From: a virus
Lineage: Duplodnaviria; Caudoviricetes
DNA: 64,000 nucleotides
Reading direction: 5' to 3' (one strand)
IMG/VR virus record: IMGVR_UViG_3300032167_000006
The notes under the pieces were generated by a model. It was given only the letters and a program-made list of their open reading frames with translations, ran no database searches and was not told the DNA's origin. How positions within the stretch are numbered: position 1 is the first letter of the stretch; each line of letters begins with the position of its first letter. Positions 23,378 to 58,733 of this stretch are shown here, piece after piece. The translations under genes and the position numbers were made by a program.

Positions 23378-23400
23378 AGAGGGAGGATTAACCTCCCTCT
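23378..23400 (+). terminator. intrinsic terminator
   Basis: AGAGGGAGG-ATTAA-CCTCCCTCT + T run. Confidence 0.82.
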
Positions 23401-23429
23401 TTTATTTTTTATTAAATTATATAATAAAT

Positions 23430-23440
23430 GTATATTATAT
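23430..23440 (+). promoter_or_regulatory. putative early-type promoter
   Basis: GTATATTATAT upstream of the RNase H operon. Confidence 0.45.
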
Positions 23441-23469
23441 AAATATAATAAAAGGAGGTGAAAATATTT

Positions 23470-24135
23470 ATGAGTAACGTATTAGAAATTTGTACAGATG
23501 CAAGTATACGCACATTTCCTAATGGTAGAACATTTGGATGTGCTGGAGCTTTATGCATCACTACAATGGAACAAGATTATTTAGTATCGCAAGATACAAC
23601 CAATAATAGATCTGAGCTCTTAGGAGTATATTTAGGTCTTAAATTGGGAAAACGTATTATGGATGAAAATCCTAATTACAAAAGTATGATTATTTATTCA
23701 GACAGTCAGTTTGCAATATTTGGATTGACAAAATGGATGGCTGGATGGATGAAATCAAAAGATACTAACGGAATAATTTATGGTTCTAATGGTAAACCTG
23801 TAAAGAACCAAGAGTTATTTATGTGTATCTTATCATTTATTACATCTAATCAAATTAAAGTTACATTTAGACATTGTTCTGGCCACGTTAGATACACCAG
23901 TACTAAGATGCTCAGACAAGCAAACGATGTTTATTATAGGTCTAATGGAGAATATCTACGTCCAGAAGATATTTTTAAATTAGCATATTATAATGACATT
24001 GTAGATACTACAACTAGAGAATATTTACAAACTATCAATCCTGATATATATCCAAAAATGGATTATTCAAATAATTATCAGATGATGGCAAAATATGTAG
24101 TTCCAAATAATTATACGAACTTTATAGGAGATTAA
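23470..24135 (+). CDS. ribonuclease HI
   Basis: TDAS, TNNRSEL, YSDSQF, VKNQEL, HCSGH, NDIVD. Confidence 0.9.
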   Translation: MSNVLEICTDASIRTFPNGRTFGCAGALCITTMEQDYLVSQDTTNNRSELLGVYLGLKLGKRIMDENPNYKSMIIYSDSQFAIFGLTKWMAGWMKSKDTNGIIYGSNGKPVKNQELFMCILSFITSNQIKVTFRHCSGHVRYTSTKMLRQANDVYYRSNGEYLRPEDIFKLAYYNDIVDTTTREYLQTINPDIYPKMDYSNNYQMMAKYVVPNNYTNFIGD

Positions 24136-25164
24136 ATGATGTATGAGAATATGCAAGGGATGATTCAAAATGGTGGATTTGGAACTTCTGGTCCAATGAA
24201 CTTTCAAGGATTTAACCCCTATCAAAACAATATGATACCATTTGGAAACTATAATCAACCATCGGTACAACAGCCGTATCAGTATTATAATAATCCATAT
24301 GGAAATCAACAACCACAAAATAATGGACTGGTATTTCAACCAGTCGGAGGTTATCAACAACCAAAAAATAATTACAATTATTATAATCCTTATGGAAATA
24401 CATTTACTCCAACACCATACGGTTATAATTCATATGGTAATGCTTATAGCTATAATTATTATAATGGATATAGACCATATGCATCACCTGTTGCAATGCA
24501 ACAATATCAAAATCAACAAATAGAATTGTTTAAAATGAAATATCGTTTAGCAAATCATTATGTTGGAAATGAGATTAATGAAGATTATCTTGATAAATTA
24601 TGTAACCCTAATAATCAAATATATCAGAAATCTCAAGAACAAATAGCTGCAGAAGAAGAGCATAGATTTATGCAATATGTTTCTAATGTAGCATGTGGAA
24701 TAATACAAGTTCCAAAATCTAATATACAACGTGAAGCAGATATGTTGAATCTAATGTCTTATAATTTACATCAAGCATTAGATAATCATTCATTATGTGA
24801 ATTTTTAGAAGATGATCTTTGGAAGTTACAAAGAGAATTTTGGATTAGGGATAATCTTAAATTAAATGGTAATAGAGATCTTTCAACCACATATAATAGT
24901 AGTGATTATAATGAACTATTAAGGCTACACAATAGCTCTACAAGTCCATATGTAAGCGATTTACTTAATAATTCAAGATATGATAATAATCTTGACGATA
25001 TAGAAATCGGTATGAAAATGGCATTTGATAGAGAACGAAGAAGGAAAGCAATATTAGAAGGTAAAGTTCCTGATTTCATTTCGTCGGACGAAACACAAAA
25101 ACGTCGACATGAATGGACGCAGCAACTAATGAATCAAATTTATAGAAAAGGAGGAGGCGTATAA
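24136..25164 (+). CDS. protein with N-terminal Q/N/Y/G/P low-complexity (prion-like) domain
   Basis: first ~128 aa almost uncharged, with repeated (Y)NPYGN-like units; predicted helical C-terminal part. Confidence 0.8.
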   Translation: MMYENMQGMIQNGGFGTSGPMNFQGFNPYQNNMIPFGNYNQPSVQQPYQYYNNPYGNQQPQNNGLVFQPVGGYQQPKNNYNYYNPYGNTFTPTPYGYNSYGNAYSYNYYNGYRPYASPVAMQQYQNQQIELFKMKYRLANHYVGNEINEDYLDKLCNPNNQIYQKSQEQIAAEEEHRFMQYVSNVACGIIQVPKSNIQREADMLNLMSYNLHQALDNHSLCEFLEDDLWKLQREFWIRDNLKLNGNRDLSTTYNSSDYNELLRLHNSSTSPYVSDLLNNSRYDNNLDDIEIGMKMAFDRERRRKAILEGKVPDFISSDETQKRRHEWTQQLMNQIYRKGGGV

Positions 25165-26924
25165 TGTCTAGGGTATCTTTAATTGAACAACTCTATGCTC
25201 CTAAGAAGAAAAGTGCCCTGGAATTTGATTATGATAAATTATGGGCACCACCCATAAGATTCTTTTTATCGCAGCAGGATATTAATGAATTATATAAAAT
25301 TGCTACTTCATTAAAATATAATGATAATATTGAAAAGAAGTACGAACTCATAGATGCAGTCATGAGGCCTCGTGGATTTAAACGTGGTAATTGCGGCACT
25401 AATAGAGTAGTTTATAATTTCTTAGAAGACACATCATTTTGTATGAAGATTGCACTTGATCGTGTAGGTATTAAAGATTCTCCAAGAGAATTTAAAAATC
25501 AAGAATTCTTTAAACCGTTTTGTTGCAAGATATTTGAAGTGGATCCAACTGGAGTTATAGCATGTGTAGAGCGTGTTAATCCAATATCCTCATTAGAGGA
25601 ATTTATATCTGTTGCAGATGATATATTTAATATGATGGTAACTAAAATCATTGGAAAATATGTTGTAGATGATTTAGGTACTGAAAAGTTTATGAATTAC
25701 GGAACTCGTTATAATGCTAATGGTACAGCATTTGGTCCCGTAGTTTTAGATTATCCGTATGCTTATGAATTAGACGGAGCTAAACTCCATTGTGCAAAGC
25801 CTGTTCTGATTGGAGATAAAGAATTTGCTTGTAATGGAGAAATTGATTATGATGCTGGCTTAAACAATCTAGTATGCAGTAAATGTGGACGAACTTATAG
25901 CGCTAGAGAGCTAGCAAGAGATGATTCAAATGTACTAAAATTCTATTCAGATGAAGATCGTGGTAGACTTAGGGCAAGAATCGTGAGAGAAGATGGAACG
26001 ATTATAAAAGATAGTGGTCGTTCATCAAAAACATACATTACTAAAGAAGAATATGAGGAGGGCATTAGAATGTTCGAATTAAAAGACTTAGGTCCACGTC
26101 CGGTAGAAAAAACAATTAAAAATAAATATGTCCCGATGAAGAAACTTAGGGAACAATATCATTCAGAACTTCAACTTAAAGCTTATGAGGAAATGCAAAA
26201 AAGAAATGCAGAACCTTTTAATCCTGCAATGAAATCTGAATTTAGTCCTAGACCAGCAAAAAGAGCTGGTAAAAATGAATCTAAAGATAATACAATCATT
26301 GCAGATCCTATAGTAGCAACTGAAGAAAGAATTCAAAATGTTACAATAGCAGCAAGAGCAGAAGATGCTATCAATGAACAGGAATCTGAAATTGTAAAAG
26401 AAACAACTTTTGAAGAGGCTTTAGCTGAAGCTTTAGAAGCAGAACCTGATACGGTCGATGAAGATATGCCTTTAGAAGAAGCTATAAATAAAGCTTTAGA
26501 GGAAGCTGAAGACGATGATTCTGAAGATGAAGAGGGTACTGAGTATTATGAAGAGAATGATACTGTTGAAAATTCTGATGAGGAATCAGAAGAAGAGGAA
26601 GATGAAGAAACTGTTTCAGAAGATGAAGAATTTGAATCAAATAATTCAGATGAACAGAAAGGATTTGATGAAGAAATGGAAGCAGAAGTATTTCCTGAAA
26701 TGAATAATGATAATATTATAGTTGGAGTAGACTTATCTAATGATGAGGAAGATTATTCTAATTATATTCCGCCTGAAGAAGAAGATGAAGAAGACTTTGA
26801 GGATGATGAAGACGATGAGTATTCTGAACTGTATGCATTTGATCGTAAAGCACAAAAACGCGACAATAAAAAACAGCAGAATAAATCCAAAAAGTTTAAT
26901 AGTGGAGATATGAGCGATTATTAA
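25164..26924 (+). CDS. protein-kinase-like fold protein with Zn ribbon and long acidic tail
   Basis: GNCGTNRVVY Gly loop, CMKIA Lys, PREF Glu, DDLG..FMNYG catalytic loop, VLDY; C...C...CSKC; D/E-rich C-terminus. Confidence 0.72.
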   Translation: MSRVSLIEQLYAPKKKSALEFDYDKLWAPPIRFFLSQQDINELYKIATSLKYNDNIEKKYELIDAVMRPRGFKRGNCGTNRVVYNFLEDTSFCMKIALDRVGIKDSPREFKNQEFFKPFCCKIFEVDPTGVIACVERVNPISSLEEFISVADDIFNMMVTKIIGKYVVDDLGTEKFMNYGTRYNANGTAFGPVVLDYPYAYELDGAKLHCAKPVLIGDKEFACNGEIDYDAGLNNLVCSKCGRTYSARELARDDSNVLKFYSDEDRGRLRARIVREDGTIIKDSGRSSKTYITKEEYEEGIRMFELKDLGPRPVEKTIKNKYVPMKKLREQYHSELQLKAYEEMQKRNAEPFNPAMKSEFSPRPAKRAGKNESKDNTIIADPIVATEERIQNVTIAARAEDAINEQESEIVKETTFEEALAEALEAEPDTVDEDMPLEEAINKALEEAEDDDSEDEEGTEYYEENDTVENSDEESEEEEDEETVSEDEEFESNNSDEQKGFDEEMEAEVFPEMNNDNIIVGVDLSNDEEDYSNYIPPEEEDEEDFEDDEDDEYSELYAFDRKAQKRDNKKQQNKSKKFNSGDMSDY

Positions 26925-26947: not shown

Positions 26948-27595
26948 ATGTTTAATAATCATGCAATGTCTGTAGTTACAGACTTACGAATGTTAGGGCC
27001 TGAAATAAATAATAAAGATTTTATAGCTATTGCAGCGATTACAACAAATGATTATCCTAAATTGCCTAATATATATAATGCAAGCATATTAATTCCACCT
27101 ACTGAAATTCTTATGCGTTGGGCAGATGGAGATCCGTATGTACTTCAAGCAAACTATCCTAATTATCTTAGAACTCAGACTCCTGATGATATGATAGTAG
27201 CATTAATTGCTCTTCTTACTCAAAAGAATGTGATATTATACATACCTGGAGATGAGTTTAATATATTTGGTCAAATGTTATTAGATCATATATATTTCAA
27301 TTATGGTATTATATGTAATACCCCAACAACGCAATTTGCAATGGATCAAGCAAAGATACCATTTTTACTTTCTAGATTCTATATGATTGATGCTATGAAT
27401 CCAGAAGATTATCTTTCAGCATATCCAGCAAATGCATTATTACCAGAGTTTGTTATAAATAAGCTTGCTGAAGAAATGAAACCGTTCCAACAACCTGTAT
27501 CATTCCAACAGTATGCAGAATATTTTAACAAACTAAATGCTGCCAAAGGAACAACCATTGCCCATCCAGAGATGGTTAAGGTGGTGGAAAAATGA
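26948..27595 (+). CDS. hypothetical protein, possible DUF488-like fold
   Basis: LIPPTEILMRW..D...Y..YL...KNVILY pattern. Confidence 0.45.
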   Translation: MFNNHAMSVVTDLRMLGPEINNKDFIAIAAITTNDYPKLPNIYNASILIPPTEILMRWADGDPYVLQANYPNYLRTQTPDDMIVALIALLTQKNVILYIPGDEFNIFGQMLLDHIYFNYGIICNTPTTQFAMDQAKIPFLLSRFYMIDAMNPEDYLSAYPANALLPEFVINKLAEEMKPFQQPVSFQQYAEYFNKLNAAKGTTIAHPEMVKVVEK

Positions 27596-28119
27596 TAGCA
27601 TTTATGGATGATCCTAAGTATGCAGAATTAATCCGCTATAAATTTCCAGGAAGAGAGCCAGTTATATTAAATCTCTCTTCTTATTATAGCGGTCATATAA
27701 ATATTGCTCATTTGATTACAAAGATCTCACCAATTAATAATACAGGTATGATGATGCCCGATTTTGTTAATTCTGTGGATTTTGATATTCAATATGCTTC
27801 GGCTGTATTAAATAATCCAGAGTTATTTGGATCTTTAATTAATATCATGCTTAGAGCTTATGAAGGATATTTAGTATGTATTCTGGTGCAAAGGGATCCA
27901 TATAGAGATGCCGTTATGGAATCTTTAATTAAATTAATCCAGCAAAGATACGGATATAATTGTTGGATTATTGAAGATGCTGATGATATTGAAGTGATAT
28001 CCGAACAAATGATGTTCCCTAACGGGCTTATTACGTTAGATGAGGATATTAAACAATACAATCAGATGTATTCTAAAGGTTTGGTAGGCAGTATACTGCC
28101 AAATATAAATCTTGAATAA
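27592..28119 (+). CDS. hypothetical protein, possible DUF488-like paralogue of the upstream gene
   Basis: ISP...DFDIQY..VL...GYLVCIL...LI...YG; ATGA overlap with the upstream gene. Confidence 0.45.
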   Translation: MIAFMDDPKYAELIRYKFPGREPVILNLSSYYSGHINIAHLITKISPINNTGMMMPDFVNSVDFDIQYASAVLNNPELFGSLINIMLRAYEGYLVCILVQRDPYRDAVMESLIKLIQQRYGYNCWIIEDADDIEVISEQMMFPNGLITLDEDIKQYNQMYSKGLVGSILPNINLE

Positions 28120-28124
28120 TTTTA

Positions 28125-28150
28125 TAGGAGAGCCATAATAGGCTCTCCTA
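28125..28150 (+). terminator. hairpin closing the RNase H operon
   Basis: TAGGAGAGCC-ATAATA-GGCTCTCCTA. Confidence 0.72.
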
Positions 28151-58457: not shown

Positions 58458-58733
58458 TTGGAAACTAAAAAGGTTATATTAAATAAAAAAATAGACGGTA
58501 CTAGATATAGAATTCTCCCCAAGACAAGTGCTGATATTGTTACTTTTGATGATGAAATGTCTGTTAAAGAAAAAATTTTATCTATGGAAGATAATATGGT
58601 ATCTGTTGAATATGTTACTGAAACTATTGATAAAGCAGTAGAAAAATCAGTAGAAGAAACCGTAACAGAAACAATAGAAAAGACAGTAACTGATACAATA
58701 GAAGCAACGGTTTTTGATGGGGGTGAAATTTAA
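58458..58733 (+). CDS. small fibre-associated protein (PxTxADxV motif)
   Basis: ILPKTSADIV; T/E/V-rich repeats; ends in FDGGEI. Confidence 0.65.
   Translation: METKKVILNKKIDGTRYRILPKTSADIVTFDDEMSVKEKILSMEDNMVSVEYVTETIDKAVEKSVEETVTETIEKTVTDTIEATVFDGGEI

Follow-up and report, generated by a model that had tools for sequence, protein, structure and literature searches.

Why would a phage protein carry an N-terminal region whose amino acid composition recalls that of prion-like domains, and what could such a region do? The question is raised by the gene at 24136..25164 in IMG/VR record IMGVR_UViG_3300032167_000006. The window analyzed is the whole 64,000-nucleotide stretch of this DNA, and all features described below lie on its + strand. 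The source is an uncultivated giant (jumbo) phage with a 258,973-bp genome, and the gene encodes a 342-aa protein in which a low-complexity N-terminal region precedes a helical domain. A preliminary description of the sequence had proposed that this N-terminus is a selected domain for Sup35/FUS-type self-assembly. We found selection on the region to be well supported. Self-assembly of this type is a possible role, but the conserved short motifs and the regular spacing of prolines would suit a tether with docking motifs to a similar degree.

Composition and patterning of the low-complexity region

Residues 1-128 of the protein (24136..24519) consist to 73% of N, Q, Y, G, and P (NQYGP; 93 of 128 residues), with individual contributions of 18.0% N, 17.2% Y, 14.8% Q, 11.7% G, and 10.9% P. 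The region is predicted to be disordered and contains only three charged residues (E4, K77, the single lysine, and R113) and few aliphatic ones (two I, one L, and four V). This agrees with the preliminary description, which had reported about 128 residues of such composition with about three charges, and the imperfect repeats quoted there were all found, namely FNPYQNN (26-32), YYNNPYGNQ (50-58), YYNPYGNT (82-89), and PYGYNSYGN (94-102). The proteome of the phage has a background of 24.4% NQYGP, 25.3% charged residues, and 16.9% K+I, and the binomial tails for the region compared to this background are 2e-30, 9e-13, and 2e-7, respectively. AT bias had been judged insufficient to account for the composition. 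Indeed, it is not the cause of the NQYGP bias, since random codons at genome base composition yield 21% NQYGP, compared to 24% in the proteome; relative to the latter, G, P, and Q are enriched 2- to 6-fold and K+I are depleted. When 80-residue windows were ranked by NQYGP content among the 298 six-frame ORFs of at least 80 aa in the 258,973-bp genome, the 342-aa protein came first (0.80 vs a mean of 0.27, sd 0.086, z about 6), which makes the region the compositional extreme of the proteome rather than a background-level case. The 80 residues that start at residue 5 include 31 Q+N. The Michelitsch-Weissman threshold for Q/N-rich prion-like domains is reportedly at least 30 Q+N per 80 residues; 64 of 120 homologues have this number, and the remainder have 17-29.

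The region is also patterned. Its recurring cores are NPY, PYG, and YYN, and its repeats have a period of about 7-9 residues with PY/NPYG cores. Between residues 20 and 94, prolines are quasi-periodic, with one per ~7 residues (mode 7), and their spacing is more regular than in shuffled sequences in 96% of the orthologues. Residues 95-113 form a proline-free stretch of 19 residues (YGYNSYGNAYSYNYYNGYR). Aromatic residues make up 21-24% of the region. In 96% of 115 orthologues, their spacing is more even than that of shuffled sequences (mean z -1.09), but these orthologues are related and not independent sequences; the z value of the 342-aa protein itself is only -0.56. At the DNA level, the repeats are old and degenerate: Tandem Repeats Finder detected no repeats in the DNA of the region, and just weak dispersed direct repeats were seen, on which grounds recent DNA slippage was rejected as their origin.

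Conservation, translation start, and predicted architecture

We found 122 homologues of the 342-aa protein at 90% clustering, and a search with the C-domain alone gave 102 representatives at 50% clustering. Conservation of the composition in orthologues had been named as a check on the proposed domain, and the region proved to be present, with its composition retained, in all full-length homologues for which a C-domain was detected, including matches as weak as E~1e-4 and at a locus GC of 28-37%. The great majority of these proteins (33-100% identity) have NQYGP fractions of 0.58-0.74, and charge is scarce in nearly all of them; longer or most distant members have fractions of 0.40-0.54 and up to 24% charged residues. 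The most distant relatives found by the C-domain alone have a low-complexity region as well. Across the family, the composition of this region, including an aromatic content of 15-28% and a low number of charges, is maintained although its length varies about four-fold, from about 50 to 220 aa. This suggests that the role of the region depends on its composition.

The region is not conserved in bulk composition only. Three islands, an N-terminal xNGxFGxxxP, NGxVFQPV, and YYNPYG, are separated by indel-rich segments (18% gaps vs 1% in the C-domain). The near-invariant residues I10, G13, G16, P20, N32, Y82, P85, and Y109 together with these islands suggest specific docking rather than an effect of bulk composition alone. 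The first five of these residues belong to a conserved N-terminal peptide, residues 1-36 (24136..24243), with the pattern M..MQ.MI..G.FG...PM...GFNPY.NN.IP.G. The peptide motif recurs in distant and long members of the family, among them proteins of 460-900 aa that have an extra globular insert. Further downstream lie a conserved hydrophobic island, QPQNNGLVFQPV (residues 59-70; 24310..24345), and the conserved island YNYYNPYG (residues 80-87; 24373..24396), which carries Y82 and P85. In the shortest relatives, YYNPYL stands directly N-terminal to the first helix.

Translation from the first ATG is supported by a Shine-Dalgarno sequence, AGGAG, at 24126..24130, 5 nt upstream of the start codon (ATG, 24136), which itself directly abuts the stop codon of the upstream gene (TAA-ATG). 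Most of nine related loci examined have a Shine-Dalgarno sequence at the N-terminal ATG, and it is clearly of the GGAG type in seven. The upstream ATG is thus conserved through both the peptide sequence and the ribosome-binding site, which speaks against the downstream start that had been considered as a possible objection. In one close (near-identical) pair of homologues, 9 synonymous vs 1 non-synonymous changes were found in the region, compared to 8 vs 1 in the folded domain. Taken with the conserved composition and the motif islands, these findings lend good support to the view that selection acts on the region, as the preliminary description had proposed, and that it is expressed as protein.

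AlphaFold2 left residues 1-110 disordered (pLDDT <50 for 11-110) and predicted a helical bundle for residues 118-240 with a pLDDT of about 90 or higher. The bundle (residues 118-241; 24487..24858) has four main helices and a short one at 149-156 and carries the DNHSLCEFLEDDLWKLQREFWI motif. It is followed by a conserved SRYDNN motif (residues 280-285; 24973..24990) in and beside a low-confidence loop (residues 282-294) and by a basic helical C-terminal segment (residues 290-342; 25003..25161) with 12 K/R vs 8 D/E. Neither Pfam nor PHROGs contained a family matching the 342-aa protein, and Pfam likewise gave nothing for ten long family members. The family profile had no match among all PDB chain sequences at E up to 1. 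A Foldseek search of the model against PDB and BFVD returned nothing at E up to 0.001; a BFVD row named 'prohead core protein' had a non-significant E of 0.097. In the wide VIA-align search, the best Z of 5.0 corresponded to helical noise, as did coiled-coil nucleoporin rows at Z 4.5 or less, and the ESM Atlas gave no usable match. As modelled, the helical bundle is a new domain with no known fold or sequence relative.

Operon setting and phage lineage

The unit upstream of the operon is closed by a terminator-like site (23378..23410), consisting of a G+C-rich hairpin (23378-23400) and a T-run. It is followed by an early-type promoter motif, AAATGTATATTAT (23426..23438), which agrees at 12 of 13 positions with the consensus AAATATATATTAT-(6N)-G of AR9 early promoters (PMC5312081). 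We found TATATTAT in 24 of 123 upstream regions of the genome and aligned 21 copies with full flanks. Late motifs of the form AACA-N6-TA[AG] sit before tail/fibre-side genes, only 2 upstream regions carry both motifs, and no AACA-type late motif was found at the operon of the 342-aa gene. By analogy with AR9, the 342-aa protein would be expressed early.

The first gene of the operon encodes an RNase H (23458..24135; Pfam PF00075, 4e-15; phrog_531, 9e-22). Translation of this gene probably begins with the ATG at 23470, and the listed GTG start falls within the Shine-Dalgarno sequence AAAGGAGGTG. The gene downstream of the 342-aa gene (25164..26924) overlaps it by TAATG, and the final codons of the 342-aa gene double as its Shine-Dalgarno sequence. 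In the product of this conserved partner, a kinase-like N-lobe is accompanied by a four-Cys cluster and a tail of ~200 aa that is acidic. Its structural matches are nearly all protein-kinase-like N-lobes, with Z at most 5.9 and a poor AlphaFold2 model (pLDDT 51); Pfam gave no kinase match, and an hhalign comparison with T7 gp0.7 showed no similarity (probability 0.6%). The assignment as a kinase, made from the predicted structure, is therefore weak. Two further genes of 215 and 175 aa (26948..28119) follow with an ATGA overlap, and then a hairpin at about 28126-28150. The order of RNase H, 342-aa protein, and kinase-like gene is the same at all 12 loci; at one of them (L007), the contig ends within the kinase-like gene. 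Genes near the 342-aa gene encode, besides RNase H, NrdD, DHFR, RNAP beta-prime, and a DnaB-like helicase. A second conserved Tyr/Gln/Pro-rich protein is present in each of 5 related phages, and its gene has the early motif too; the two low-complexity families of the lineage have no common motif of at least 4 residues.

The phage is distantly AR9/phiR1-37-like, with the RNAP of AR9 being only about 30% identical to its own, which limits the promoter analogy used for the timing of expression. Chimallin of phiKZ, used as a single-sequence query, found nothing in the genome, which is a weak negative. Among GenBank phages, no match was obtained by megablast of the operon, by tblastn of the 342-aa protein and the distant family member P0199, or by tblastn of the kinase-like N-terminal part and RNase H; for this reason, no annotation can be transferred from a cultured relative. 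Genome contigs searched with the family member P0099 contained no relative either.

Possible roles of the region and related systems

For the low-complexity region, we tentatively favour a role as a multivalent sticker-spacer scaffold; the main competing view is a tether that bears motifs. On the scaffold view, the 342-aa protein of this jumbo phage, a distant relative of AR9 and phiR1-37, would be made early and stay outside the virion, and it would combine three modules: a short conserved N-terminal peptide, ~100 disordered and nearly uncharged residues, and a helical bundle with a basic C-terminal helix. Tyr and Phe would serve as 'stickers' among Asn/Gln/Gly 'spacers' with a proline per ~7 residues. 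The region probably makes many weak contacts, which could be aromatic and polar and form with itself and with other such tails, the second Tyr/Gln/Pro-rich protein of the phage being a candidate partner. Through such contacts, the folded domain and its partners might become concentrated where replication or transcription takes place, and the kinase-like neighbour is a plausible regulator or partner. The protein may thereby self-associate, and a condensate or a link to phosphorylation is conceivable. With FUS and hnRNPA1, the region shares aromatics among G/N/Q/S/P spacers, the near absence of charge and aliphatics, and the predicted disorder; its aromatics may also be spread as evenly as in a domain of that type. 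In contrast to these proteins, it is Asn/Pro-rich and not Ser/Gly-rich, and the 342-aa protein has neither an RNA-binding domain nor an RGG region; unlike FUS, it contains just one [G/S]Y[G/S] motif (S-Y-G, residues 99-101). FG dipeptides occur in the region just twice (residues 15-16 and 36-37), and the many FG/GLFG repeats of FG-nucleoporins are absent.

A broader form of the scaffold reading, which we consider doubtful, is that the 342-aa family, the second Tyr/Gln/Pro-rich protein, and the kinase-like enzyme build a phosphorylation-tuned, membrane-less compartment for replication or transcription. If so, a large uncultivated AR9-like clade, in which chimallin was undetected, would use a condensate where other phages build a protein-shelled nucleus. 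Disordered regions or condensates have been discussed for ChmC of nucleus-forming phages (PMC11077065), SPO1 LLPS (PMC13401047), and the jumbo-phage Avs5 activator JADA (PMC12931631). They resemble the 342-aa protein in being early or middle proteins of jumbo or large phages. They differ in that the 342-aa family has no sequence or fold match in the PDB and belongs to an AR9/phiR1-37-like lineage. In the PDB profile, Foldseek, and VIA searches, no match to JADA was obtained, as far as the databases used include its structure. Should the region drive assembly, the protein would make sticker-spacer scaffolds tractable in a bacterial virus and hint at how jumbo phages without a protein-shelled nucleus organize replication.

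Alternatively, the region might be a flexible tether that works without collective assembly. In this case, xNGxFGxxxP, NGxVFQPV, and YYNPYG would individually dock on folded proteins, for which the kinase-like neighbour, RNase H, and host proteins are candidates, and the intervening Tyr/Asn/Gln/Pro sequence would be no more than a compact, uncharged, protease-tolerant linker. We regard this as possible but rather unlikely. It fits the near-invariant residues in islands split by indel-rich segments, the retention of the N-terminal peptide in the 460-900-aa members, and the regular proline spacing, which would suit an extended, non-aggregating linker. However, a simple linker needs no conserved composition, yet aromatics and low charge are kept, and AlphaFold2 docks none of the motifs on the protein's own folded domain. 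Even as a tether, the protein would represent a new, widespread family with a new helical domain. The SSB of bacteria and phages provides a related arrangement, as it combines a folded domain with a Gly/Gln/Pro-rich disordered linker and a conserved terminal peptide that acts as a hub. The 342-aa protein likewise has a conserved terminal peptide, an uncharged G/Q/P/N-rich disordered linker, a folded domain, and a replication-gene setting; moreover, E. coli SSB recruits RNase HI, and an RNase H gene adjoins the 342-aa gene. Unlike in SSB, the peptide is N-terminal (reversed polarity) and not acidic, tyrosine is far more abundant, and an OB fold is probably lacking: the folded part is all-helical in the AlphaFold2 model, and SSB families are absent from the Pfam and PHROGs matches.

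A virion-internal, scaffolding, or ejected protein, in which disorder would aid packing or passage through the tail, is improbable. Many head-internal proteins of jumbo phages are disordered and unannotated, and the non-significant 'prohead core protein' row would fit this role. Against it stand the early-type motif of the operon and the lack of a late motif, two classes that hardly overlap in the genome, as well as neighbours from nucleotide metabolism and replication.

We consider it improbable that the region is an amyloid prion domain providing a heritable switch, or one irreversible within an infection, between soluble and aggregated states. In yeast Sup35, an N-terminal Q/N-rich prion domain is attached to a folded functional domain, and Rho of Clostridium botulinum is a bacterial example. 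Similar to Sup35 N, the 342-aa protein has a nearly uncharged, Q/N/Y/G/P-rich N-terminus of ~120 residues with degenerate, proline-initiated repeats and an attached folded domain. The Q+N counts in the protein and its homologues and the proline-free stretch at residues 95-113 are in line with a prion domain. In contrast to Sup35 N, the protein has its own repeat period and PY/NPYG cores, conserved non-repeat islands, and a place in an early phage operon; the likeness is compositional and implies no homology. In addition, with a proline per ~7 residues between residues 20 and 94, long stretches able to form strands are few, and heritable switching is of no obvious use to a lytic-type early protein. 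Candidate prion domains are also common in silico: a PLAAC survey by Tetz & Tetz (2017) reported them in 1.35% of phage proteins, some of which, like SSB, function in replication (PMC5694896). That survey covered proteins of cultured phages, mostly tail, fibre, and SSB proteins, and reports no experimental confirmation (PMC5694896). The 342-aa protein has a compositionally prion-like stretch as these proteins do, but its family is without a GenBank phage member, and its region is conserved and selected in fixed synteny. Until now, compositionally prion-like stretches of phage proteins have mostly been listed from computational scans, and there was little to indicate that selection maintains them; here, composition, short motifs, and gene context are conserved across more than 100 uncultivated jumbo phages in an early, replication-type operon, next to a kinase-like gene.

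Finally, AT-biased drift in an untranslated or non-functional leader with the real start downstream (e.g. M121 or M134) would agree with the AT-rich codons of N and Y and with low-complexity DNA leaving alternative frames open, but this reading is already contradicted by the enrichment of G, P, and Q, the frame and N-terminal peptide kept in every full-length homologue found, the ribosome-binding site at the first ATG here and in most related loci, and the 9 to 1 ratio of synonymous to non-synonymous changes.

Composition and conservation of the low-complexity region

The 342-codon ORF at 24136..25164 (+) encodes in its 5' third (24136-24520, +) a selected, uncharged, aromatic-rich region, disordered in AlphaFold2, that continues into a new helical domain; the gene belongs to a conserved operon, and an early-type promoter motif stands in front of that operon. 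The window sits within a single virus contig of 258,973 bp with ~28% GC. Residues 1-128 of the product consist of 18.0% N, 17.2% Y, 14.8% Q, 11.7% G and 10.9% P, in sum 93/128 (73%), compared to 21% expected from random codons at the genome's base composition and 24.4% in the phage's own long ORFs. E4, K77 and R113 are the sole charged residues, and we counted one K and two I. Against the proteome background, the binomial tails were 2e-30 for the N/Q/Y/G/P excess, 9e-13 for the charge deficit and 2e-7 for the K+I deficit. These values bear out the preliminary description, which had reported a dominance of the five residues with about three charges, a near-absence of K and I, and a composition that AT bias is insufficient to explain; all four peptides it quoted are present in the region. 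When the 298 six-frame ORFs with a length of 80 aa or above are ranked by their richest 80-residue N/Q/Y/G/P window, the 342-aa protein comes first (0.80; mean 0.27, sd 0.086). Its Q+N content amounts to 31 per 80 residues, the classic threshold being 30 per 80. Tandem Repeats Finder detected no tandem repeats in the DNA of the region and direct repeats are only weak and dispersed, indicating that the peptide repeats are old and degenerate and do not stem from recent slippage.

By its sequence features, the region is both translated and subject to selection. An AGGAG is located 5 nt 5' of the ATG, a start codon that follows the stop codon of the RNase H gene without a gap, and a ribosome-binding site precedes the same N-terminal Met in most orthologous loci (clear in 7 of 9 examined), which argues against use of a downstream start. 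We found 122 homologues (90% clustering), all metagenomic and unnamed, on contigs of which the longest are 219-262 kb; a profile of the C-terminal helical domain (C-domain) alone retrieved 102 representatives (50% clustering). An N/Q/Y/G/P-rich region precedes the C-domain in all full-length members, including the most distant ones (246-288 aa, E ~1e-4), and it is charge-poor in all family members except a few long or divergent ones. The N/Q/Y/G/P fraction lies at 0.58-0.74 for the great majority of near-length homologues and drops to 0.40-0.54 for some of the longer or more distant members, and the loci carrying homologues have a GC content of 28-37%. Composition is maintained while the length of the region ranges from ~50 to ~220 residues. 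In the sole near-identical pair at hand (L004 and L005, loci of related phages), the low-complexity region shows 9 synonymous and 1 non-synonymous differences, and the folded domain 8 and 1. This count and the retention of composition in every full-length homologue, a check proposed in the preliminary description, support its view of a selected domain. With the N/Q/Y/G/P window standing in for the PLAAC score, none of the three contrary outcomes it had listed (a background-level score, loss of the region from orthologues, a downstream start) was encountered.

Architecture of the protein

In an alignment of 68 sequences, I10, G13, G16, P20, N32, Y82, P85 and Y109 are each at least 90% conserved. 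Conservation is concentrated in three islands, namely the N-terminal peptide M..MQ.MI..G.FG...PM..GFNPY.NN.IP.G, QNNG.VFQPV and Y.YYNPYG, between which the alignment is rich in indels (18% gaps vs 1% in the C-domain). Prolines occupy residues 20, 28, 35, 42, 47, 54, 60, 69, 76, 85 and 92/94; among orthologues the modal gap between them is 7, and Y directly follows proline in 31% of cases. Aromatic residues make up 21-24% of the region. Compared with shuffles, 96% of sequences space their prolines more regularly (mean z -1.5) and 96% of orthologues space their aromatic residues more evenly (mean z -1.09; -0.56 in the 342-aa protein itself), fractions that are not independent tests because orthologues share ancestry.

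AlphaFold2 with the family alignment yielded a pLDDT below 50 for residues 1-110 and a helical bundle of four main helices for residues 118-240 (pLDDT ~90 or higher), followed by weaker helices up to residue 338 and a conserved SRYDNN motif in a low-confidence loop. The last 53 residues are basic (12 K/R vs 8 D/E). Searches for relatives in Pfam, PHROG, PDB sequences, Foldseek, VIA-align and Atlas gave no meaningful match. Family members of 460-900 aa hold additional inserted sequence, which is unannotated. In seven metagenomic members of 600-900 aa (P0130, P0139, P0143, P0148, P0151, P0153 and P0155), an extra conserved block, for example ...GWP.N.FKP...LPIG.IY....YYRPE..., separates the N-terminal peptide from the helical domain and has no Pfam family.

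The operon and its early-type promoter motif

The phage encodes split multisubunit RNA polymerase subunits, and the beta-prime N-terminal fragment is nearest (~30% identity) to those of Yersinia phage phiR1-37, AR9-like Bacillus phages and Staphylococcus S6-like phages. Promoter consensuses of AR9 are published (PMC5312081), and both classes are recognisable here. Over the whole genome, early-type TATATTAT motifs occur in 24 of 123 upstream regions and late-type AACA-N6-TA[AG] motifs in 27, the latter being 16-fold enriched upstream and mostly located 30-40 nt before start codons; only 2 of the 123 regions contain both. Within the window, late-type motifs stand, for example, before the genes with starts at 58458, 55411(-), 49516, 43497, 42429 and 42325(-), and precede several genes on its structural (tail/fibre) side. 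The operon of the 342-aa protein starts with the early-type motif AAATGTATATTAT (23426-23438), preceded by a terminator-like hairpin (23378-23410), and no AACA-type late motif was found at it. The early class is common to this operon, the DnaB-like helicase gene and the RNA polymerase beta-prime N gene.

AR9-like phages were placed outside the nucleus-forming Chimalliviridae by a recent review (PMC13282480). The phiKZ shell protein as query gave no match in the whole genome, a negative result that carries little weight. The presence of an anaerobic ribonucleotide reductase suggests that the host lives anaerobically. Genome-wide, AAAACTTGGTAA is repeated in 18 copies and a ~30-nt block with TATCATATGAACAAATTATAGATC in 13-14 copies; these could be copies of one repeated element or belong to a family of paralogous genes.

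The gene order RNase H, 342-aa protein, kinase-like product, two small genes, unnamed gene and phrog_21037 gene is kept in 11 of 11 loci reaching that far, with DHFR between the last two in 9 of these. The loci were drawn from contigs of 52-313 kb; one further locus, L007, stops within the kinase-like gene. The listed GTG start of the RNase H ORF (23458) falls within the Shine-Dalgarno sequence AAAGGAGGTG (23451-23472), and translation more likely begins at the ATG at 23470.

The kinase-like gene (25164-26924, +) overlaps that of the 342-aa protein in TAATG. GGA GGA GGC GTA TAA (25150-25166), encoding the terminal ...GGGV of the 342-aa protein, also serves as the ribosome-binding site of the kinase-like gene, a role that may constrain the conserved Gly-rich C-terminus. 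The confident AlphaFold2 part of the downstream product (residues ~28-139) aligns almost solely with N-lobes of protein-kinase-like enzymes, including APH, POMK, CLK/DYRK, Rio2, NleH, HopBF1 and WaaP, at structural Z of 5.9 or lower from a model with a mean pLDDT of 51. Further features of the product are a four-Cys cluster and an acidic tail, ~200 aa in length; neither a Pfam kinase match nor similarity to T7 gp0.7 was detected. Its kinase-like nature is probable, not established.

Possible function and a second low-complexity protein

Sup35 N and FUS-type low-complexity domains are similar to the region in composition and layout, but the region has PY/NPYG cores of its own and just a single [G/S]Y[G/S] motif. 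Since candidate prion domains have been catalogued in 1.35% of phage proteins (PMC5694896), a prion-like phage region is of a kind already known. No description of the family, of its helical domain or of the fixed pairing with the kinase-like gene was found in the searchable literature, and cultured phages yielded no member.

We tentatively favour a role as a multivalent sticker-spacer module. Self-association of the low-complexity region, or its association with similar tails, would raise the local concentration of the folded domain and of its partners where replication or transcription takes place; the kinase-like enzyme encoded next to it may be a partner or regulator of the 342-aa protein. 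The main rival, possible if rather doubtful, is a tether displaying three docking motifs, which fits well with the conserved islands and the regular prolines, but less well with a composition kept despite four-fold length variation. A virion-internal location of the 342-aa protein is improbable, as both promoter class and gene neighbourhood speak against it. A true amyloid prion switch appears very unlikely given a proline about every seven residues and the lack of a rationale for such a switch in an early phage protein. An artefact is contradicted by the data and can practically be dismissed.

A 311-aa protein, which ranked second in the proteome N/Q/Y/G/P scan, is encoded just outside the window (G000:C1:148337-149272 on the whole genome contig, corresponding to locus L013:538-1470; +). 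It comprises a short Y/G/Q N-tail, a zinc-ribbon core (CTH...CPIC) and a C-tail of ~130 residues rich in Q/P/Y/G/M/A, which terminates in a conserved TETK.EL-type tip. Its layout is similar to that of SSB, with a folded core, a disordered linker and a terminal tip. No conserved words of at least 4 residues are common to this protein and the 342-aa family. Each of 5 related jumbo phages (236-313 kb) retains the protein, tails included, and its gene, with an early-type motif upstream, adjoins a GyrB-like topoisomerase gene.
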